The notes: generated by a model not told the origin, from the sequence alone. DNA of 42,427 bases from Candidatus Hermodarchaeota archaeon (GCA_048885925.1 JBHLLG010000023.1:1-42427); one strand, 5' to 3'; counted from the stretch's first letter, positions 683-21,585 are shown. Made by a program: numbers and translations.

Positions 683-2281
683 CTAATTATTCATATTATT
701 TGCTTCAAGCCTTTCCTCAATGTGTTTTATTGCATTTGAAGCATAGATCCTAACAACCCTATGAAAATCATTAACTCTTTTTAATAACGCACTGAGCACT
801 TTTTCATCCCCAAATGTTTCTAATAGTTTTATTATACCCAATTTAACTTTATAATTTTCATCTTCTTGTTGTCCTAAATATTCAGATATTAAAGCAATCT
901 TTTTATTAAATAATCTTCTTATATCTTCACTTTTTATTCGATACCAATTTCTTTGGAAAACATTATAAATAGCATCAATTGTGACTTTCTTAATCAACCA
1001 ATATTCTTTTTTATCGTCTAAAATATTTATTAAAGAGTCTAAAGGTTCAAAATTACCAATTTTTCCTAAAGCAATTATAGCAATTTTTCTTACATCTAAA
1101 TTTCGTACTCTTAATAAACCTAATAAAGGTTTTACAAAATCCTCTTTCCCTATCTCTCCTAAAATAAAAGCTACACTTTCTTTTATGGTATTATTATCTC
1201 GATTTAGACAAGAAAATAATTCTTCATAAGTAGCATCTTTATTATTCAAATATATTTTCTTAATAGCATCAAGAATGTATAATTTCATATCTAAATCAGT
1301 ATATTCGAAACTCATATCTTCAATGTCTAAAACGTTTAAAAGCTCGGGTACAGCAGATAATTCTCCGATTTCACCTAAAGCTTCTATAGCAGCTATACTG
1401 ACCTCATTATAAATATTATCTAAATTAGTTAATAGTAAATCTACAGCACTCTTCAGTTTTAATTTCCCACTTAAAATTACCGAATTCTTTCTTACTATGA
1501 AATCATCGTTTAACAATAATTTAATTAAATCTTTTTCAACCTTATCTTCTAATAATTTTAAAATAATGATTACGGAATTCAGAAGATCTGAATCTTCTTC
1601 TTTTAAAATTAACGTTATAACATCGAGTAAAATATTTTTATTTTGAATTAAGTTTGTTAAAATTTCAGGATATTTTGCTTTTAAGTAACTCATATCTTCA
1701 AAAGATACATTTATACTTGATAACTCATATCCAATTAATTTTACTACTTCAGTTTTATGTTTATTTGAAAATCTCTTATTATTTAATGAATTTATTGATA
1801 ATTTTATAAGATCTTCAGGATTCAGACTTAATAATTGAATTGTAACATAATCTTTTATTGAATGATAATTATTATCAAGTTCATTAATAAATAGTTGAAT
1901 TTCGTGATCTTCAAATCTAATTTTATGTATTGCCTTTAAAACTGATAACTTTATTTGGTTATCAACTTGTTCTTGTTCTAATATCCATTTTAAAGGTTTC
2001 AATCCTTTCTCATGTTTTATTCTCCCTAACGCTTTTGCGGCTTCACATTTTATTTCAATTTTATCATCGGAAACTAACAAATTCTCAAAAGTACCAAAGC
2101 ATTCATTCTTTATCGAATTTGAATTAATGCCTATTAAAGCCAAATATTTAATTGCTTCTTTCCTTTCATTGTCATCCGCATCGGATTCGATTATTTCAGT
2201 TAATAAACTCGCTGAATTCTTAAATCCTAATTCCTCACTTCTCTTAAAAATTTCTTGCGGACGAATCTTTGATTGTTGCAT
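683..2281 (-). CDS. HEAT/PBS-lyase repeat protein
   Basis: Repeated helical units such as 'EAAKALGRI', 'AAIEALGEIG', 'VAFILGEIG' and 'AIIALGKIG'. Confidence 0.9.
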   Translation of the reverse strand: MQQSKIRPQEIFKRSEELGFKNSASLLTEIIESDADDNERKEAIKYLALIGINSNSIKNECFGTFENLLVSDDKIEIKCEAAKALGRIKHEKGLKPLKWILEQEQVDNQIKLSVLKAIHKIRFEDHEIQLFINELDNNYHSIKDYVTIQLLSLNPEDLIKLSINSLNNKRFSNKHKTEVVKLIGYELSSINVSFEDMSYLKAKYPEILTNLIQNKNILLDVITLILKEEDSDLLNSVIIILKLLEDKVEKDLIKLLLNDDFIVRKNSVILSGKLKLKSAVDLLLTNLDNIYNEVSIAAIEALGEIGELSAVPELLNVLDIEDMSFEYTDLDMKLYILDAIKKIYLNNKDATYEELFSCLNRDNNTIKESVAFILGEIGKEDFVKPLLGLLRVRNLDVRKIAIIALGKIGNFEPLDSLINILDDKKEYWLIKKVTIDAIYNVFQRNWYRIKSEDIRRLFNKKIALISEYLGQQEDENYKVKLGIIKLLETFGDEKVLSALLKRVNDFHRVVRIYASNAIKHIEERLEANNMNN

Positions 2282-11522: not shown

Positions 11523-11814
11523 AAAAAAATAGATTTTTAAAAGAAATCAAATTTTCCTCAGAAATGTTCAAGAACGATCATTTATTCTATTAATATTTTT
11601 GATCTCCAAAAATCTTTAATTCCAAATTATCAAAAAAGTGAAAATTAGTTGGGATCCATAATCATAATCTTAAAATTTGCTTAAAAAAATCAATCGTAAG
11701 AAATAAAAATATTAAAAACGAATAAAACCTAAAAGATAAAATATTAATTTACGAAATATAAAAAAGATTGTACAATCTTGTATAAAAAAATTAGAGGTTG
11801 ATGTGAAAAGAGTA

Positions 11815-13758
11815 ATGGAAAATCAAACTCATCGGATTGGTTACTATGCATGTCAGTGAGGTATAAACATCCGAAGTAAAGTTGATTGTGATGAGCTCGT
11901 GGAGTACGTTAAAAACAAATTTCCTGATGAAATTGTTATATCAAAAAAAAACGCTTTCTTATGAACTGATAGTGCTCAAAATGAAATAATTGAGGATATA
12001 AAAGAGAAAAATTTAAACAGAATTGTAGCTTCAGCTTGAACTCCGCGTACACATGAAGTAATTTACCGAGGGACAATCGCTAAGACAGATTTAAATCCAT
12101 ATTATTTTCAGATGGTAAATGTACGGGAACACTGTTCTTGGTGTACAGATAGCAAACAAGAAGCGACAGAGAAAGCAAAAATACTTGTAAAAAGTGGTAT
12201 TGAAAGAGCTAAACTACTAGAGCCAGTTCCGATTAAAACAGTTCCTGTTACAAAAGCTAGTATGGTTGTTGGAGGAGGAATTGCAGGGATGAATGCTGCT
12301 TTGGATCTAGCTAATCAGGGGATCAAAGTCTATTTAGTAGAACAAAAAACAACTATAGGAGGTAGAATGGCTCAATTGGATAGAACATTCCCTACTGATG
12401 ACTGTGCTATATGAATTTGTGGTCCTAAAATGTTAGAAGTAAATAGGAATGAGAATATTGAATTATTAACCTATTGTGAAGTGAAGAAAATAGAGGGTTA
12501 TGTTGGTAATTATAATGTAACAATTGAAAAGAAACCAAGATATACTACAGATGAATGTAATGGGTGTGGAGCATGTGCTGAAGTTTGTCCTGTTTATACA
12601 ACAAATTATTTTGATGAATATTTAGGTACACGAAGGGCAATTGATATTTCCTTTGGTCAAGCGGTACCATTCTTATATGATGTAGATCGAAACGCTTGTA
12701 TTGAATGTTTCTCGTGTGTGGATGCTTGTGAATTAGATGCCATTGATTTTAGCCAAATACCAAAACAGATAGAGATCAACGTTGGTACGATAATAGTAGC
12801 TACAGGTTGGGATATCCATGAGCCTTATGGAGAATACGGTTACGGAGAATTTGAAAATGTTATTACTCAAGCCCAACTTGAGCGAATGTTAGCTCCAAAT
12901 GGACCACTTGAAGGACATGTGCGAAGAATTTCAGATGATAAAAAACCCCAAGAAATCGTATTCATCCAATGTGTCGGAAGTAGAGAAACAGAAAGAACAT
13001 ATTGCAGCGGTGTATGTTGCATGTTAGCTTTAAAAAATGGAAGATTATTAAAAGAAGAATTTCCAGAAGCAAATATTACAATTTGTTATATTGATATAAG
13101 AACAAATGAAAAAGGTTTCGAAGAATATTTCCAACGTGCTAAAGATTTTGATATTAAATTGGTTCGAGGTAAGGTTGGTGAGATCTCTGAAGATCCTGAT
13201 ACTAAAAATATAATACTCCGTGTTTATTCGTCTTTAACGGATGAGATTATAAAAATAGATGCGGATTTAGTTGTTCTATCTACAGCAGCGCTCCCATCAA
13301 AAGGCACCCAACAAATTGTTCAAGTGTTGAATCTTGATACAAATACATATGGGTTCCTTACAGAATCACATTTCGGTTTAATGCCGCAAGAAACTAAAAC
13401 AAAGGGAATATTTATTGCGGGTTTTGCTCAAGGACCAAAAAATATCTCATATTCCGTGTCTCAAGCCAGAGCTGCCGCAAGTAAAGTAGCTGAATTGACT
13501 TCCCCAGGAGAAATCGATTTAGAACTAATAACTGCGGAAGTAGATAGTGAATTTTGCATATCATGTAGAAGATGTGAAAAAGAATGTCCTAAGAATGCCA
13601 TCAAAATAGATGAAGCGATTGGTGCTTTTATCGATGAAATTAACTGCGATGGTTGCGGTATTTGTGCGACCTGTTGTCCTACTCAAGCAATTGACATTAA
13701 ATATTATCGTGATCACCAATTATTTGCTGAAATTACTGGTTTATTAGGAGGTGAATAG
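11815..13758 (+). CDS. hdrA: selenoprotein heterodisulfide reductase subunit A, ~647 aa, 4 in-frame UGA (Sec)
   Basis: One frame from ATG 11815 (alternative GTG 11803) to TAG 13758, interrupted only by TGA at 11857, 11962, 12037 and 12412. Contexts are ACQUGINI, AFLUTDSAQ, ASAUTPRTHE and DDCAIUICGPKM, each matching a Cys in the paralog at 17270. Joins track ORFs 12112-12414 and 12430-13758. Confidence 0.93.
13747..13754 (+). promoter_or_regulatory. Shine-Dalgarno site for vhuD
   Basis: GGAGGTGA 10 nt before ATG 13765, inside the hdrA 3' end. Confidence 0.7.
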
Positions 13759-13764
13759 ACAATA

Positions 13765-14220
13765 ATGCAACATAATTATAAAATAGTAGCTTTTGCTTGT
13801 TTAAAGTGAGGTTATAGCGCAGCAGATTTAGCAGGTGTTTCTCGTTTAAAATATACGACAACAGTAAAAATTGTTAAAGTAAGATGTACAGGGAGAGTTG
13901 ATGTGAAACATATCCTTTATAGTATTATCTCTGGAGCTGATGGCGTCATGGTAGTAGGTTGACGACCTAATGAGTGTCAATTTAAGAATGGTAATTTCAC
14001 GGCTCAACGGCACGTTGATTTGGCAAATAGAATTTTAGAATCTCGAGGTTTTGGAAATCAAAGAGTTAATATGTATTGGTTAAGTGGGGCTGAATCAGAA
14101 AAGTTTGTAAAGAGTGTTGAAGATGCTTATGAAAAAGTAAAACGAGCTGGCCCAAATCCAATTAAAACTATGGATGTCGATATACCAGAAGACAAATTAG
14201 TAATTACCCCTATAGAATGA
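13765..14220 (+). CDS. vhuD: selenoprotein methyl-viologen-reducing hydrogenase delta subunit (VhuD/MvhD), 151 aa, 2 in-frame UGA (Sec)
   Basis: MQHNYKIVAFACLKUGYSAADLAGVSR...RCTGRVD...GADGVMVVGURPNECQF; TGA at 13807 and 13960 align with Cys in CCNWCSY and ITGCHIGDC of the paralog at 20381. Confidence 0.92.
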
Positions 14221-14273
14221 TTCTTATAAAAAAATCTTAGTTATAGGATGACTAACCTTGTGACGGAAGGGGT
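14206..14273 (+). promoter_or_regulatory. eukaryote-type SECIS element candidate
   Basis: AUGAU (14217-14221) / UGAC (14249-14252) non-Watson-Crick core; 8-bp helix UCUUAUAA/UUAUAGGA; A-rich apical loop AAAAAUCUUAG; lower pairing ACCCC (14206-14210) / GGGGU (14269-14273). Confidence 0.8.
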
Positions 14274-14332: not shown

Positions 14333-15847
14333 ATGGTTCAAATAGTTAATAATAAATTGTTTACTGGAATATCTCCAAAAGGATTAATGGAAGCAACTTA
14401 TAAAGCTTCATGTAATTTTCAAATTCGAGCTTTTTTTGAAGCAAAAGATGAAATATTGAAGGCTGGAAAATATACCGAGAATGAGTTTTATGAAATTCTG
14501 GATGCGATGATTGATGCAGAAACAGAGCGTAAATTAGTCTTAGAAAAACTAAAAGGTAATAAACCGCTATTTTTAGAAGAACTTGCAATAGTTGTTAAAG
14601 AATTTCCCTTAGAGAATGTAATTAGAGATATAATCTATTTAAAAGAACAAGGATATATTGAGGAACATATTGAAGTTAAAACTAAAAAAGTGATTAAAAA
14701 AATTAAGGGAGAAGAAAAAGAAGTTGAGGAAAGTGAAAATTTCTATAGATATCAAGTGAAAGATATTTCTGATAATTTTATTGAACATTTTTTTGAACCA
14801 GTATCTTTAGTGTCTGAATCTGAAGTATGCTGTCAGTGTGGTTGGTGTTCATCAATTTGTCCTGTAAATGCCATTACAGTTACAGCAGATACTTTAGAGA
14901 TTGATGATGATATTTGTATGAAATGTGGCTTATGTTATTCAGTTTGTCCTCGTTCCTTTTCAATTGAACAAGCTTTATTGAGTATTAACAAGCTCAATAA
15001 ATCATTGAAATTTTCAGAAAAAATCAACGGGTATCTTAATACTTATTCAGCTACAACAACGAGTGATGAGATCAAAAAGATACGACAGGATGGAGGAATT
15101 GTTACCTCTTTACTTGAATATTTATTGAAGAATAAATTAGTTGATGCGATTGTAGCTGTTCAGCATTCACAGGACTATTGGAAACCTGAACCAGTTATAA
15201 TAGATGATATTAAAAATTTATATAAAACTGGTGGAACCAAGTATGCTAATGCATCAACTTTAAACATAATCGATAAAACAAAGAGGTATGAGAATATCGC
15301 AATTGTTGGTGTTCCTTGCATGATGAATGCTCTAGAAAAAGGTAACTTATTCCCAAGCGGATTTCCTTTTTTTAAGAATATCAAATATAAAATTGGACTT
15401 TTTTGCATGGAAGCCTTTCCTTATGAGAATGTGCTTAAACTTATTAAAGAACAATTTGACAAAGATTACACAAAAATAAAAAAAATGGATATTAGTGGGG
15501 GTAAATTTATTGTTTACTTAGATACAGGTGAAGATTTAAGAGTGCCGTTAAATGATGTAAAAGTTTATGCACGTCATAACTGCCATTTTTGCGAAGATTT
15601 AACCTGCGATTGTGCCGATATTTCTGTAGGATCAATAGGATCACCGAGTGGTTGGTCATCAGTAATAACCAGAACGAAAATTGGAGAAAAAATCTTTAAA
15701 AATGCTATTAAAAAGGGTTTAATTGAATCCAAAAGCCTAAAAGACGTTAAACCAGGCCAAGATTTGCTTGAACGGATAGCTGGAACAAAAAGAAAGAATT
15801 GTAAGCCGCTAATATTAAAAAAGAAGACCTTGATTTCAAAATGCTAG
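14333..15847 (+). CDS. coenzyme F420 hydrogenase/dehydrogenase beta subunit (FrhB/FpoF-like) with N-terminal helical/wHTH extension and 2x[4Fe-4S]
   Basis: CCQCGWCSSICP, CMKCGLCYSVCP, QDGGIVTSLL, GTKY, VGVPC, IGLFC, CHFCED and ADISVGSIG motifs. Confidence 0.88.
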   Translation: MVQIVNNKLFTGISPKGLMEATYKASCNFQIRAFFEAKDEILKAGKYTENEFYEILDAMIDAETERKLVLEKLKGNKPLFLEELAIVVKEFPLENVIRDIIYLKEQGYIEEHIEVKTKKVIKKIKGEEKEVEESENFYRYQVKDISDNFIEHFFEPVSLVSESEVCCQCGWCSSICPVNAITVTADTLEIDDDICMKCGLCYSVCPRSFSIEQALLSINKLNKSLKFSEKINGYLNTYSATTTSDEIKKIRQDGGIVTSLLEYLLKNKLVDAIVAVQHSQDYWKPEPVIIDDIKNLYKTGGTKYANASTLNIIDKTKRYENIAIVGVPCMMNALEKGNLFPSGFPFFKNIKYKIGLFCMEAFPYENVLKLIKEQFDKDYTKIKKMDISGGKFIVYLDTGEDLRVPLNDVKVYARHNCHFCEDLTCDCADISVGSIGSPSGWSSVITRTKIGEKIFKNAIKKGLIESKSLKDVKPGQDLLERIAGTKRKNCKPLILKKKTLISKC

Positions 15848-15965: not shown

Positions 15966-17270
15966 TTGTATTATATTAATGGATTGGAAGTGGACATAAT
16001 AACAGAAATTAATGGAAAGGATAAATTGCAACCAAAAATAGATGAAACTGACATCTATCTAGAGAAAATTTATGAAGAAAAATTAAGAGATATGCTGAAG
16101 CGTTGCTATCAATGTGGTCGTTGTTCTGGAGTATGTCAACTTAGCAAAGTTCAAAAGTTTACACCTAGTAGAATCATTCAAATGATCTTGGAAGGTTTTG
16201 AAGACAAGATAATTGAAAGTGGTGTATTATGGGACTGCTTATCGTGTAACACATGTCTACAATATTGTCCTGAAGAGATCAATTTTGCAGATATTGTAAG
16301 AGTCGCGAGATATAAAATGCGAAATTTGGCAAATCAAAGCCCTGATGAATACATAGCTCATAAAGGTATTTATACAACTATTTCTGAAATAATGAGTCAA
16401 CAAGGAATACGTCCTGAAAGAAATCTTGAGTGGGTTCCTAAAGGATGTAAAATTTCTGATAAAGGAAATATAATGTATTATATTGGATGTCTACCTTTTT
16501 ATAATTTTGAATTTGAAAATTCAGATTCTATAGCGAAAAGTACTCTAAAAATTATTTGTCAAATTGAGAAAGAACCTATTGTTGTTCTTAAGGATGAAAT
16601 CTGTTGTGGCCATGATATATATTGGGGACAAGGAAAGTTAAATGAATTTATCAATTTGGCTAAAAAAAATGTTAAAAAACTTGAAGAAACCGGGGCTACA
16701 ACAATTATAACTGCTTGTGCAGAATGTTATAGAACTTTTAGAGTGGATTATACACACTTATTTGAAGATTTTAATGAAAAATTCAAGGTAAAACATATAA
16801 TAGAATATGTTTATGATCTCTGGAAACAAGGTAAAATTGAATTTAAAAGTCCTAAAGATATAACAGAACCTATTTCATTTACATATCATGATCCATGCAG
16901 ATTGAGTAGATTTTTACCTAAAGAAAGCACTTTAATGGAAAATGTAAGAGAGTTATTCTCTGAATTAAAAAAAATTGGTTATGAATTCAATGAAATGGAA
17001 CATAATCAAGAAAATTCTTTATGCTGTGGAGTCAGTTCTTGGATGAATTGTAATGAAAAGTCTAAAGCACTTCGATATAAGCGTATGTTAGAAGCAAAAG
17101 AAGCAGGAACAATAATGGTAACATCTTGTCCAAAATGTGCCATACATTTAAATTGTATCCAAAATGATTATGAAAATTTGGCTTCAGTAGAAATTCTAGA
17201 TTTTTCAGAATTTTTAGTAAATTTAATACAGATTAAAAATGCTGTAGAAAAATCGGAGGTTAAAGAATAA
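15966..17270 (+). CDS. HdrD-like Fe-S oxidoreductase (HdrC-type ferredoxin plus two CCG domains)
   Basis: CYQCGRCSGVC, CLSCNTCLQYCP, EICCGH, TACAEC, YHDPCRL, LCCG and TSCPKC motifs; exact start uncertain. Confidence 0.88.
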   Translation: MYYINGLEVDIITEINGKDKLQPKIDETDIYLEKIYEEKLRDMLKRCYQCGRCSGVCQLSKVQKFTPSRIIQMILEGFEDKIIESGVLWDCLSCNTCLQYCPEEINFADIVRVARYKMRNLANQSPDEYIAHKGIYTTISEIMSQQGIRPERNLEWVPKGCKISDKGNIMYYIGCLPFYNFEFENSDSIAKSTLKIICQIEKEPIVVLKDEICCGHDIYWGQGKLNEFINLAKKNVKKLEETGATTIITACAECYRTFRVDYTHLFEDFNEKFKVKHIIEYVYDLWKQGKIEFKSPKDITEPISFTYHDPCRLSRFLPKESTLMENVRELFSELKKIGYEFNEMEHNQENSLCCGVSSWMNCNEKSKALRYKRMLEAKEAGTIMVTSCPKCAIHLNCIQNDYENLASVEILDFSEFLVNLIQIKNAVEKSEVKE

Positions 17271-20200
17271 TGGAAGGTGCAGTTTGTGTAATTGGAGGAG
17301 GAATTGCGGGAATTCAAACTTCTTTAGATCTTACGGAATTAGGCTTTAAAGTTTATTTAGTAGAAAGAACACCTTCGATTGGAGGTAGAATGTCTCAACT
17401 TGATAAAACGTTCCCTACAAATGATTGTAGTTTATGTATTCTGGCACCGAAAATGGTAGAGGTTTTTAGGAATCCCAATATAGAGTTGATGACATATCAC
17501 GAAGTTAAGGAAATTTCGGGTGAACCGGGAGATTTTACCGTTACTGTTCTGAAAAAACCTCGATATATTGAGGAATCACTATGTAAAGGATGTGGTGACT
17601 GTGCAACAAAATGCCCTAAAATAGAAGTTGGAAACATTTTTGACATGAATTTGGGTAAAAGAAAATCTGTGTATATCCCATTTCCACAAGCAGTCCCTCC
17701 TGTTTATTTAATTGACCCTGAAATTTGTTTGAAACTAACGAAAGGAGTGTGTGGGGTTTGTGAAAAAGTATGCGAAGTTAAAGCAATTAATTATGAACAG
17801 AAACCACAAGAAATAAAAATCAAAGTAGGAGCTGTAGTTGTAGCAACCGGATTTGATATGCCTGCTGAAGAATTATCAGCTAGATGGGGTTATCATTATA
17901 AAAATGTAGTGAGTGCTCTTGAATATGAAAGAATTCTATGTGCTTCTGGACCATTTGGTGGTCACGTTTTAAGACCAAGTGATGAGGAAGAACCCGAAAT
18001 TATAGCATTTATTCAATGTGCGGGTTCTCGAGATTTACATGAAAACGTGCCTTATTGCTCATCAGTTTGCTGTATGTACACTGCAAAGGAAGCCATAATA
18101 ACCAAAGAACATTCTGAGAAATCACAATGTTATGTATTTAGGCATGATATAAGAGCGTTTGGTAAGAATTTCTATGAATTTACTCAAAGAGCTCAAGATG
18201 AATATGGTGTGCAATACTATCAAACAAAAATCAGCAAAATAACAGAAGATCCCAAAACAAACGATTTAATTATTCATTATGAAGATTTAAAAACCGGAGA
18301 ATTTAAAGATTTTCGAGCAAATTTGGTTGTTTTGGCAACCCCATTGGTTCCTTCAAAAGGTACAACAGATTTAGCAAAAATTTTAAATATAGAATTAGAC
18401 GAATACAACTTCTTTAAGGAATACTCATATTTTAATAAATCTCAATCCTCACAAAATGGTATATTTTTATGTGGATTTTGTCAAGGTCCACAAGATATTC
18501 CAGAAACTGTAGCTGATGCGAGTGGAGTTGCATCACAAGTAGCTATGTTATTAAATCCAGCTAAATTTACTCAAGTTAAGGAGAAAATTTTTGAAGAACT
18601 AGAAAAAGAAGTTAAAATCACAGATACTCCTAGAATTGGTGTAATGATATGTTGGTGTGGGATTAACATTGGAAAATACGTTGATGTTCCTAATGTTGCA
18701 GAATATGTAAGAACATTACCAAATGTTGTTCATTGTGAAGATAATTTGTATTCATGTAGCTCAGATTCTCAGACAAGAATAAAAGAACTGATAAAAGGAT
18801 ATAAATTAAATAGGTTTATTGTAGCATCGTGTACTCCTAGAACTCATGAATCACTATTCCAAGAAACTTGCCAAGAAGCAGGATTAAATAAGTATCTCTT
18901 TGAAATGGTTAATATTCGTGATCAATGCTCTTGGGTTCATATGACTGAACTTAAGGCAGCAACACAAAAGTCTAAAGATCTAATTCGAATGGCTGTTGCT
19001 AAATCAAGATTATTAAAACCTCAGAAGGAAGAGACACTTGAGATTACTCCTACAGCATTAATAATAGGTGGTGGAATCGCTGGGATGAGTGCTGCTCTAA
19101 ATATTGCTAACCAAGGATTTAAAACTTTTATTGTTGAAAAGGAAAAATATCTTGGCGGAAACTTAAATAATTTAAATAAACTTTATCCAATTCATGAAAA
19201 TGCTACAAAATTTCTTGAAAATACTAAAAAACTAGTCAGCAATAACAAAAATATACAAGTTTTCTTAGAATCTAAAATAAATGATATCAAAGGATATATT
19301 GGTAATTATAATGTATCAATTATGGACTCTAAGCAAGAATTGCATGATCTCTTGATAGGTACGATTATTGTAGCCACAGGAGGACAAGAACTTAAGCCTA
19401 AAGGACTATTTCAATATGATGGAAAAAGAAAGAATGTAATGACTCAATTGGAGTTAGAGCAGAAACTTAAAGAAGAGGATAAATCTTGGCTTAATGATAT
19501 TAAACGTGTAACAACAATTTTATGTGTTAATGCGAGACAAAAAGAAGGTATAACCTATTGTTCAAATACATGTTGCGGAAATAGCATTAAAAATATTAGT
19601 TTCTTAAGAGAAATAAAACCTGAACTTGAAATCATTGTACTTTACAGAGATCTTCAGATGGCGAAAAAGAAATACGAAGAATATTATCGTAAACGTAGAA
19701 AAGATGCTATATTTTTGAGATACGATTTAGATAATATTCCAGAAATAACTAAAACAAATGGAAAAGTTGAAAAATATACTGTAAAAGTATTCGATACTAA
19801 TTTACAAGATACCGTTGAATTTGATACAGATTTAATAGTGTTATCAACTCCAATAATACCTGCAGATAACTTAGAAGATTTAGCAAAGAAACTAAAGGTT
19901 CCTCTGGATAAAAATGGATTCTTCTTGGAAGCTCATGTTAAATTACGTCCTTTAGATTTTGCGACTGATGGTATTTTCTTATGTGGATGCGCACAATGGC
20001 CTAAAAATATACAAGACTCAATATCACAGGCAAATGGAGCTGCTGGAAGAGCAAGTAGATTTTTAAGCGCAAAAGAAATCACCACATCGGGGATAGTAGC
20101 AGAATCAAATCCAGATATGTGTATTGGATGTGGTAAATGCGTAGAAATATGTCCTTATAATGCAATAGAATTAATTGAATCAACAAAAGATTTCGAAGAA

Positions 20201-20353
20201 GTTAGCTTTATTATTAAAAAATCATTTATAAACCCTGCCTTATGTAAAGGATGTGGAACATGTGCCGCTACATGCCCAAATGGCGCAATCTCAGTTAAGC
20301 ATTACGACTTTAATCAAATCACTGCTATGATAGAAGCATTTCTTTTAGAGTGA
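17270..20353 (+). CDS. hdrA: large Cys-type heterodisulfide reductase subunit A with two FAD-binding modules
   Basis: Two GGGIAG motifs, DKTFPTNDCSLC, CAGSR, CSSVCC, ICWCGINI, ASCTPRTHE, NIRDQCSW and C-terminal ferredoxins; start overlaps the upstream stop (TAATG). Confidence 0.92.
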   Translation: MEGAVCVIGGGIAGIQTSLDLTELGFKVYLVERTPSIGGRMSQLDKTFPTNDCSLCILAPKMVEVFRNPNIELMTYHEVKEISGEPGDFTVTVLKKPRYIEESLCKGCGDCATKCPKIEVGNIFDMNLGKRKSVYIPFPQAVPPVYLIDPEICLKLTKGVCGVCEKVCEVKAINYEQKPQEIKIKVGAVVVATGFDMPAEELSARWGYHYKNVVSALEYERILCASGPFGGHVLRPSDEEEPEIIAFIQCAGSRDLHENVPYCSSVCCMYTAKEAIITKEHSEKSQCYVFRHDIRAFGKNFYEFTQRAQDEYGVQYYQTKISKITEDPKTNDLIIHYEDLKTGEFKDFRANLVVLATPLVPSKGTTDLAKILNIELDEYNFFKEYSYFNKSQSSQNGIFLCGFCQGPQDIPETVADASGVASQVAMLLNPAKFTQVKEKIFEELEKEVKITDTPRIGVMICWCGINIGKYVDVPNVAEYVRTLPNVVHCEDNLYSCSSDSQTRIKELIKGYKLNRFIVASCTPRTHESLFQETCQEAGLNKYLFEMVNIRDQCSWVHMTELKAATQKSKDLIRMAVAKSRLLKPQKEETLEITPTALIIGGGIAGMSAALNIANQGFKTFIVEKEKYLGGNLNNLNKLYPIHENATKFLENTKKLVSNNKNIQVFLESKINDIKGYIGNYNVSIMDSKQELHDLLIGTIIVATGGQELKPKGLFQYDGKRKNVMTQLELEQKLKEEDKSWLNDIKRVTTILCVNARQKEGITYCSNTCCGNSIKNISFLREIKPELEIIVLYRDLQMAKKKYEEYYRKRRKDAIFLRYDLDNIPEITKTNGKVEKYTVKVFDTNLQDTVEFDTDLIVLSTPIIPADNLEDLAKKLKVPLDKNGFFLEAHVKLRPLDFATDGIFLCGCAQWPKNIQDSISQANGAAGRASRFLSAKEITTSGIVAESNPDMCIGCGKCVEICPYNAIELIESTKDFEEVSFIIKKSFINPALCKGCGTCAATCPNGAISVKHYDFNQITAMIEAFLLE

Positions 20354-20380: not shown

Positions 20381-20818
20381 ATGTCAAAATCAAAAAGTAA
20401 AGAAAATAAAGAAGGTTTCAATCCAGAAATTTTAGTTTTTTGCTGTAATTGGTGCTCTTATGCTGGAGCTGATTTAGCGGGAGTATCAAGATTTCAATAT
20501 CCTCCTAATATGAGGATTGTTCGAGTTATGTGTTCGGGTCGAGTTGATCCTTCCTTTGTTTTGAAAGCTTTAAATAATGGTGCAGACGGTGTTCTTATTA
20601 CTGGGTGTCATATTGGTGATTGCCATTACATATCTGGAAATGAATATACAAGAGACAGATTTAAGAGATTGCATGAAATCATAATAAAACAGTTAGGTAT
20701 AAATGGTAAACGTGTTAGACTTGAGTGGGTGAGTGCATCAGAAGGTAAGCAATTTGCAGATTTAATCACTGAATTTACAAATCAAATAAAAGAATTAGGG
20801 CCATTTCAAGCGACATAA
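20381..20818 (+). CDS. mvhD: methyl-viologen-reducing hydrogenase delta subunit (Cys type)
   Basis: FCCNWCSYAGADLAG, VMCSGRVDP, GCHIGDCHY and WVSASEG motifs; AAGGAG RBS. Confidence 0.95.
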   Translation: MSKSKSKENKEGFNPEILVFCCNWCSYAGADLAGVSRFQYPPNMRIVRVMCSGRVDPSFVLKALNNGADGVLITGCHIGDCHYISGNEYTRDRFKRLHEIIIKQLGINGKRVRLEWVSASEGKQFADLITEFTNQIKELGPFQAT

Positions 20819-20877: not shown

Positions 20878-21585
20878 TATAAAGAAAATAATGCGAATTA
20901 TTTAAGATATAATTTGAGTAATATTCCAATTGTAGAAAAAATTGACAAAAATCCTGAAAAATATTGGATAGAAATGCGTGATGATGTTGATGTGGAAAAA
21001 AAAATCGCTTTTAAAACAGATCTTGTTTTGCTAGCAACCCCATTGATTCCCTCTAGAAATTTAAAAGAACTAGCAGCTATGCTAAACTTATGTTTGGATG
21101 ATAATGGTTTTTTTCCAGAAGCTAATGAAAAAATGCGACCTTTAGACTATGTAACCCATGGTATTTTTGTATGTGGGTGTGCTCAATGGCCAAAAAGTCT
21201 TCAAGATTCTATAACAAAAGCAAATGGATCTGCTAGGAGAGCCAGTATATTTCTGAGTAGAGGAAAAATCTCAAAAACAAACCTAGAATTTATGTCATTT
21301 CTACTTTCAATTGAATGCTTTTTTAGAGATTTAATTATTAATCCTAAAAAATGTAATGGTTGTGGAAATTGCGTGGAGAACTGTGCTTTCAAATCGAATG
21401 ATCTTATAGATGGTGAGAGTAAATTTGAGGATGATAGTTTACTCATTAGAAAAGCTGTAATAAATTCTGCACTTTGTAAGGGATGTGGAAAATGTTCTTC
21501 CATTTGCAAACTAAAAGCAATAAAAGCGAAATATTTTGATTTCAAGCAAATTTCATCGATAATTGACCCATATTTCTTAGAATAA
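20878..21585 (+). pseudogene. 5'-truncated paralog of the HdrA C-terminal region
   Basis: Similar to residues DLIVLSTP...GIFLCGCAQWPK...FLLE of the 17270 HdrA. Homology (NANYLRYNLSNIP vs DAIFLRYDLDNIP) extends upstream of the TTG at 20914 to an in-frame TAG at 20875 with no start codon. Confidence 0.65.

Follow-up and report, generated by a model that had tools for sequence, protein, structure and literature searches.

A predicted Loki-type hdrA-vhuD selenoprotein pair with six in-frame UGA codons and a single SECIS element in a Candidatus Hermodarchaeota archaeon

Described HdrA-VhuD systems and the present locus

In Loki archaea, HdrA with up to four selenocysteine (Sec) residues was described by Mariotti et al. 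2016 (PMC4989117). Sec-HdrA was reported there to occur always in tandem with a two-Sec VhuD, the two genes sharing one SECIS, and six UGA codons were described on this one element. The same account stated that the N-terminal Cys residues are not cluster ligands; it predates any HdrA structure, and no paper revisiting this statement was found in a literature search. The pair type was extended to Asgard archaea in 2024 (PMC11227280), in a survey of 1439 selenoprotein sequences among which HdrA and FrhD/VhuD were the commonest. Terms for multiple Sec residues or for iron-sulfur are absent from the main text of that survey. According to the available text of the 2016 account, the multi-Sec HdrA gene is a type already described for the lineage, and the word "hidden", which an earlier note on the same DNA had used for the gene treated here, had to be given up.

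For the structure of HdrA, Chadwick et al. 2022 described an N-terminal Fe-S cluster bound by Cys residues of the N-terminal domain together with Cys197 of the partner HdrA, and attributed the solved HdrA structure with the Cys197 ligand to M. wolfeii. In two cryo-EM papers of 2026, Cys/Sec197 is treated not as a fixed cluster ligand but as one half of a Cys pair, which carries either an unknown ligand or a selenylsulfide. The first of them, in Nature (PMC13518236), reported a density between cluster A3 and FAD which is held by a Cys and Sec197, and suggested a selenylsulfide relay. The second, in Science Advances, reported an unknown ligand on the Cys202/Cys205 pair, termed HA3 a shuttle cluster and added Cys16 of MvhD to the conserved Cys residues along the path.

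The locus analysed here lies in a window (the whole stretch of DNA that was analysed) of 42,427 nucleotides from Candidatus Hermodarchaeota archaeon (GCA_048885925.1 JBHLLG010000023.1:1-42427). Judged from sequence comparison, the region very probably (roughly 0.93) holds an intact hdrA-vhuD selenoprotein pair of the Loki-type Asgard archaea (Promethearchaeota), in which six UGA codons are recoded via one SECIS. Comparison with the Loki pairs as described in the available text of PMC4989117 showed no essential difference. As in those pairs, UGA codons lie at conserved Cys positions including the site near codon 200, with up to four Sec; a two-Sec vhuD stands directly downstream on the same strand; the stop codon of hdrA is TAA or TAG and never TGA; and the only SECIS, located after vhuD, combines an AUGA core and a 9-bp stem with an 11-nt A-rich loop and GA. 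EFSec and tRNA-Sec, too, lie on opposite strands about 6 kb apart, as in the Loki layout. Absent from the available passages of the Loki accounts are a lower helix and a third hairpin of the SECIS and a fifth Sec at column 298, 301 or 614 of some orthologs. In addition, the tRNA-Sec intron lies in the D arm in this genome, whereas the Loki sequence of 2016 (PMC4989117) has it in the T loop.

Similar to the HdrA of M. maripaludis (PDB 9sfi; PMC13518236), the window HdrA has a predicted Sec at the codon-200 position, and both in-frame TGA codons of the window vhuD align with the two X (Sec) positions of the M. maripaludis VhuD (9sfi_K). However, the M. maripaludis HdrA has one Sec and all of its N-terminal Cys are Cys, whereas the window HdrA would have four Sec. 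The former is also part of a CoB-CoM heterodisulfide reductase from a methanogen, its SECIS being of the archaeal type, while the SECIS of the window is eukaryote-like. The HdrA of Methanothermococcus thermolithotrophicus (5odc) is all-Cys, without selenocysteine, and its Cys11, 13, 46, 71, 194 and 197 correspond to C13, U15, U50, U75, C197 and U200 of the window protein.

The hdrA-vhuD locus and its SECIS

Translation of the hdrA stretch (Table 1) showed a single frame with TGA at codons 15, 50, 75 and 200, no TAA or TAG ahead of the terminal TAG (13756-13758) and no other stop, in agreement with the earlier note. The two remaining forward frames had 48 and 77 stops across the same stretch. 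A GTG at 11803 is a possible alternative start. With translation table 11, the frame was broken into 12112-12414 and 12430-13758, which is the splitting by gene callers that had been foreseen in the same note. Callers using table 11 break up or omit hdrA and its partner vhuD, an annotation issue shared by five among the genome's ten full-length HdrA paralogs.

Table 1. Positions of the features of the hdrA-vhuD region, of its neighbouring genes and of tRNA-Sec. Positions are those of the window, except for tRNA-Sec (C8).
Feature	Position	Strand	Remarks
hdrA-like gene	11815..13758	+	647 codons, TAG stop; solved HdrA chains matched full-length
UGA codon 15 (C-Q-U-G)	11857..11859	+	Cys13 of 5odc_A; TGA in 73/73 covered orthologs
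UGA codon 50 (F-L-U-T)	11962..11964	+	Cys46 of 5odc_A; 74 covered orthologs: TGA 51, Cys codon 23
UGA codon 75 (S-A-U-T-P-R)	12037..12039	+	Cys71 of 5odc_A; TGA in 74/74 covered orthologs
UGA codon 200 (D-C-A-I-U), canonical HdrA Sec site	12412..12414	+	Cys197 of 5odc_A; TGA in 79/79
vhuD/mvhD-like gene (FlpD family)	13765..14220	+	151 codons; Pfam FlpD 2.5e-42
lokiSECIS	14206..14273	+	AUGA 14217-14220; GA 14250-14251
FrhB-like	14333-15847	+	
HdrC/B-like (CCG domains)	15966-17270	+	
Fused double HdrA, all Cys	17270-20353	+	1027 aa
Cys-type MvhD	20381-20818	+	
Ferredoxin-like protein	20914-21585	+	
tRNA-Sec	C8:83691-83815		Just before SepSecS; 32-nt D-arm insert 83708-83739

The hdrA product was aligned end to end with solved HdrA chains, with the best match to 9sfi_A (1.2e-196) and another to 5odc_A (9.8e-192). 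Pfam searches produced an FAD/pyridine-nucleotide fold and two ferredoxin domains, and with the N-terminal Cys set the four-domain layout of HdrA is present. The NCBIfam equivalog for methanogen CoB-CoM HdrA was missed (762 bits against a cut-off of 1100; 617 against 1400). On these matches, the hdrA product is a homolog of the HdrA family, and a role as CoM-S-S-CoB reductase is not implied.

All four TGA codons of hdrA fall on Cys columns of 5odc_A, and codon 200 is also opposite the X of M. maripaludis 9sfi_A, the known Sec197. The fused double HdrA of the window likewise showed Cys opposite each of the four, as had been read from the sequence before; U15 (CWC), U50 (YSCS) and U75 (ASCTPRTHE) were matched in its second half and U200 (DCSLC) in its first half. 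The hdrA protein has 29 Cys and 4 TGA positions among 647 residues, and the chance of four random positions all lying on Cys-type columns is approximately (33/647)^4, or about 7e-6. The four internal UGA codons of hdrA are almost certainly read as selenocysteine.

The first half of the fused double HdrA lacks the N-terminal cluster domain but retains the DCSLC pair. The same complementary loss is found in the fused or tandem HdrA of ANME archaea, where it was read as a built-in heterodimer (Chadwick et al. 2022).

Elsewhere in the genome, 10 full-length HdrA paralogs and additional fused forms were found. In five of the ten, both column 15 and column 200 had TGA; one member of this group, on C5, also had TGA at column 50, and the window copy had TGA at columns 50 and 75 additionally. 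Cys13 and Cys197 were invariably Cys among the ten. If the genome as a whole read TGA as a standard amino acid (e.g. Trp or Gly), with no selenocysteine involved, the hdrA frame, which is open with TGA as any residue, would likewise be accounted for. However, in-frame TGA codons of the HdrA and VhuD paralogs are confined to Cys columns, and the genome has a dedicated tRNA(UCA) of the Sec-type 9/4 fold as well as SepSecS, SelD and a SECIS. Furthermore, TGA serves as the ordinary stop of 4 of the 31 large ORFs in the window, which indicates that the code is not reassigned. Reassignment thus has next to no probability, and reading of these codons as Sec is preferred.

The vhuD gene starts 6 nt after the hdrA stop and on the same strand, a spacer that leaves no room for a second SECIS after hdrA. 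Its UGA-Sec codons are codon 15 (13807-13809), with which Cys16 of MvhD aligns, and codon 66 (13960-13962). Both were retained in 25 of 28 ortholog rows. The terminal TGA of vhuD (14218-14220) sits within the AUGA of the SECIS and, being too near that element, would terminate translation.

The upper stem of the lokiSECIS has 9 bp (14221-14229 with 14241-14249) and closes an 11-nt loop, AAAAAUCUUAG, at 14230-14240. The SECIS motif was present in 25 of 28 ortholog rows, and the remaining three loci end too early. In the alignment of these 25 sequences, 94.5% of the cells were paired and 7 pairs were changed on both sides. The covariation score was reached by none of 500 shuffles, and slid controls were only 45-61% paired. 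RNAalifold independently gave the same three helices. Rfam at gathering thresholds gave no match in the window, and no Rfam family reported a Loki-type SECIS.

Beyond the published upper stem, two further parts of the SECIS were conserved with compensatory changes: a lower helix, in which 14206-14211 pairs with 14268-14273, and a third, small hairpin formed by 14256-14259 and 14263-14266.

A two-Sec HdrA paralog at C11 (~62263-60232, minus strand) had a lokiSECIS-like motif at 60221, approximately 10 nt past its TAA. A tblastn search with the window VhuD found no vhuD adjoining this paralog. With respect to the wording "always in tandem" in the available text of Mariotti et al. 2016 and of the 2024 survey (PMC11227280), the C11 paralog is an exception to the published rule.

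Conservation in orthologs and the selenocysteine machinery

A match to hdrA at E<=1e-100 was obtained in 59 of 60 related genomes. The first ortholog set comprised the best 27 loci of other genomes, which were 80-94% identical and had 3-5 TGA codons where complete. Among these best 27 loci, TGA was found at column 15 in 25 of 25 covered loci, at column 75 in 25 of 25 and at column 200 in 27 of 27, while column 50 (26 covered) had TGA in 22 and TGT in 4. The wider set consisted of 80 loci, mostly from Promethearchaeota/Promethearchaeia with a few under other Asgard labels, and overlaps with the genomes of the first set; it was reduced to 79 when one locus (L154) was dropped after the filter found no segment in it. 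Of the 79, 46 rows had the same four TGA codons (15, 50, 75 and 200), 21 rows had three TGA (one of these incomplete), one row had TGA at 15, 75, 200 and 614, and five rows had five TGA. At the four columns, relatives had TGA or Cys codons throughout; TAA and TAG, which the earlier note had raised as contrary signs, did not occur. All 27 complete ortholog rows had TAA or TAG as the hdrA stop. A TGA was also read in one row each at column 13 and at column 96; both were rejected as alignment artefacts, the reading of these rows having started inside a frame-shifting insertion.

Selection was estimated by the Nei-Gojobori method against eight orthologs, with dS of approximately 0.25-2.4 in the segments that gave an estimate. 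The dN/dS ratio was 0.01-0.17 in segments 16-49, 51-74, 76-199 and 201-647, wherever dS was estimable, and the first 14 codons of hdrA were under weaker constraint (0.35-0.84). A decaying hdrA paralog, turned into a pseudogene by four nonsense mutations, might be considered given the redundancy of HdrA in this genome and the disruptive insertions in 4 of the 79 orthologs. Against decay, each of the four stops is a TGA at a Cys column, and they are kept among the covered orthologs (Table 1) with synonymous sites near saturation. In addition, the dN/dS ratio stays low after each TGA, and the window copy has no TAA, TAG or frameshifts. A pseudogene is therefore scarcely conceivable. Judged from these codon comparisons, hdrA is not decaying and its UGA codons are kept under strong purifying selection, which bears out the argument of the earlier note that four such codons are not random decay.

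Another possibility is that UGA is decoded partly or mainly as Cys, by a near-cognate tRNA or when selenium is limited, or that only the distal UGA codons are recoded and translation starts internally at 12112 or 12430. Column 50 switches freely between TGA and Cys codons, so Cys works there; ATG codons are present at both internal positions; and recoding of six UGA codons over 2.4 kb with one SECIS is demanding. On the other hand, columns 15, 75 and 200 never had a Cys codon in the 73, 74 and 79 covered orthologs, a failure to revert which speaks for selection on Sec itself. The same purifying selection as in the rest was also seen in the segments upstream of 12430. Cys decoding or internal initiation is thus improbable, and Sec insertion at all four hdrA positions is the reading kept below.

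An extra Sec at column 298, 301 or 614 was found in 6 of the 79 orthologs (L148, L103, L122, L139, L102 and L155), in the motifs CxxUxxC (298), CxxCxxU (301) and CxxU (614). These are canonical Cys of ferredoxin motifs without an extra Cys nearby, and they differ from the C-terminal Sec site in the available text of Mariotti et al. 2016, which adjoins an extra Cys. Sec at canonical ferredoxin cysteines in these orthologs suggests that the HdrA family tolerates Sec as an Fe-S ligand. A five-Sec HdrA, together with the two Sec usual in the downstream vhuD, would place seven UGA codons on one SECIS.

Short insertions of approximately 30-39 nt were observed in 4 of the 79 hdrA orthologs (L094 at ~967-1005, L101, L160 and L163). 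They were located at three sites of the N-terminal domain, before codon 15 and at codons ~101 and ~108, and they hold in-frame stops or shift the frame. Two of the insertions at one common site retained the hairpin AAGAGU/ACUCUU with a different loop, and both folded into a 4-bp helix, a 3-nt bulge and a 9-bp helix. The insertion of L094 is single-copy in its own genome. These insertions could be introns of the bulge-helix-bulge type in a protein-coding gene, or else insertions that kill the gene, and some hdrA copies that carry them may be dead or need splicing. The passages covered in a targeted literature search did not describe introns in the mRNAs of Asgard archaea.

For decoding, the earlier note had pointed to tRNA-Sec, SepSecS, an EFSec-type factor, SelD and PSTK, whose absence would have spoken against Sec; candidates for all were found, PSTK only as a fragment. 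SepSecS was identified at C8:83884-85185 (478 bits against a cut-off of 225) and adjoins a Sel_Asgard protein (229 bits against 132). An EFSec-like factor of 472 aa was located approximately 6 kb upstream on the opposite strand; its score of 235 bits is slightly below the bacterial selB cut-off of 242. SelD was found with one in-frame TGA.

The unspliced tRNA-Sec gene (Table 1) scored 34 bits in Rfam against a cut-off of 47, a low raw score because the 32-nt insert breaks up the D arm, and ARAGORN did not find tRNA-Sec on the raw genome. With the insert removed, ARAGORN called tRNA-SeC(tca) with a 9-bp acceptor stem, a 4-bp T stem and a 7-bp D stem. The UCA anticodon, the 9/4 fold, a 4-nt D loop and a long variable arm, which are features of archaeal tRNA-Sec, are all present after removal of the insert. 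Intronless tRNA-Sec orthologs scored 60-62 bits against the cut-off of 47, and tRNA-Sec was present in 23 of 23 same-genus genomes searched. The 32-nt insert is common to two same-genus relatives; two relatives have other inserts at that place and 16 same-genus loci have none.

PSTK was represented by an N-terminal fragment of 44 residues only (C154 ~1385-1540, minus strand), the gene being interrupted by a run of N after about 50 codons; the fragment is 77% identical to the start of a full-length homolog in a relative. Full-length PSTK relatives scored 136-154 bits, under the equivalog cut-off of 290. Searches with TIGR03574 and PF08433 for PSTK in the own genome gave P-loop fragments only, and a match at C66 was dropped as it resembles APS kinase by eye. 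With PSTK cut by the run of N, automatic checks for a complete Sec machinery would miss it. Overall, by homology, the genome encodes the archaeal/eukaryotic Sec pathway, with PSTK as a fragment only.

Predicted recoding and selenium at the iron-sulfur clusters

Following Mariotti et al. 2016, hdrA and vhuD would be translated off one mRNA. The single SECIS at the 3' end, the EFSec-like factor and Sec-tRNA(Sec) would recode all six UGA codons over approximately 2.4 kb. HdrA is presumed to function as a flavin-based electron-bifurcating subunit. In this protein, Sec200 and Cys197 would form a CxxC/U pair between three cofactors: the [2Fe-2S] cluster of VhuD, FAD and HA3, the mobile [4Fe-4S] shuttle cluster of the N-terminal domain.

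Since no more than four Cys-type residues are conserved in the N-terminal domain (C13, U15, U50 and U75), a [4Fe-4S] cluster bound there would use at least two Sec. At least two of Sec15, Sec50 and Sec75, possibly with Sec200 of the partner subunit, may bind iron via selenium or form a selenol relay beside the cluster. A selenium-ligated [4Fe-4S] site in HdrA, in line with the multiply Se-ligated metal site suggested in the earlier note, is plausible. The more specific proposal, in which the N-terminal shuttle cluster is mostly or entirely selenolate-bound (Sec50, Sec75 and in addition Sec15 and/or Sec200 of the partner) and the VhuD cluster has a Sec as neighbour or ligand, is put forward tentatively, with somewhat less than even odds. 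BLASTP of the HdrA N-terminal domain against VhuD gave nothing significant. In hhalign, with small alignments, the same comparison reached a probability of 14.8%, a weak hint; in this low-probability alignment U15, U50 and U75 were opposite U15, C41 and U66 of VhuD.

A selenium-ligated Fe-S relay centre is not known to have been characterised in any enzyme, and no paper proposing a selenium-ligated cluster for the Loki enzymes was found in the literature search. If the proposal is true, HdrA would hold a natural selenium-ligated Fe-S electron relay tuned for low potential or for fast ligand exchange.

The class to which this locus is assigned is a published case of one 3' SECIS that serves six UGA codons across two cistrons, and also of a SECIS of eukaryote-like form in those archaea that are most closely related to eukaryotes. 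Of the predicted Sec residues of HdrA, three belong to the domain in which the shuttle [4Fe-4S] cluster is bound, and the fourth is the residue reported to bind the cluster from the partner subunit. With Sec positions in or near the domain of the shuttle cluster, the HdrA family would be well suited for asking what role selenium has at or beside an Fe-S cluster.
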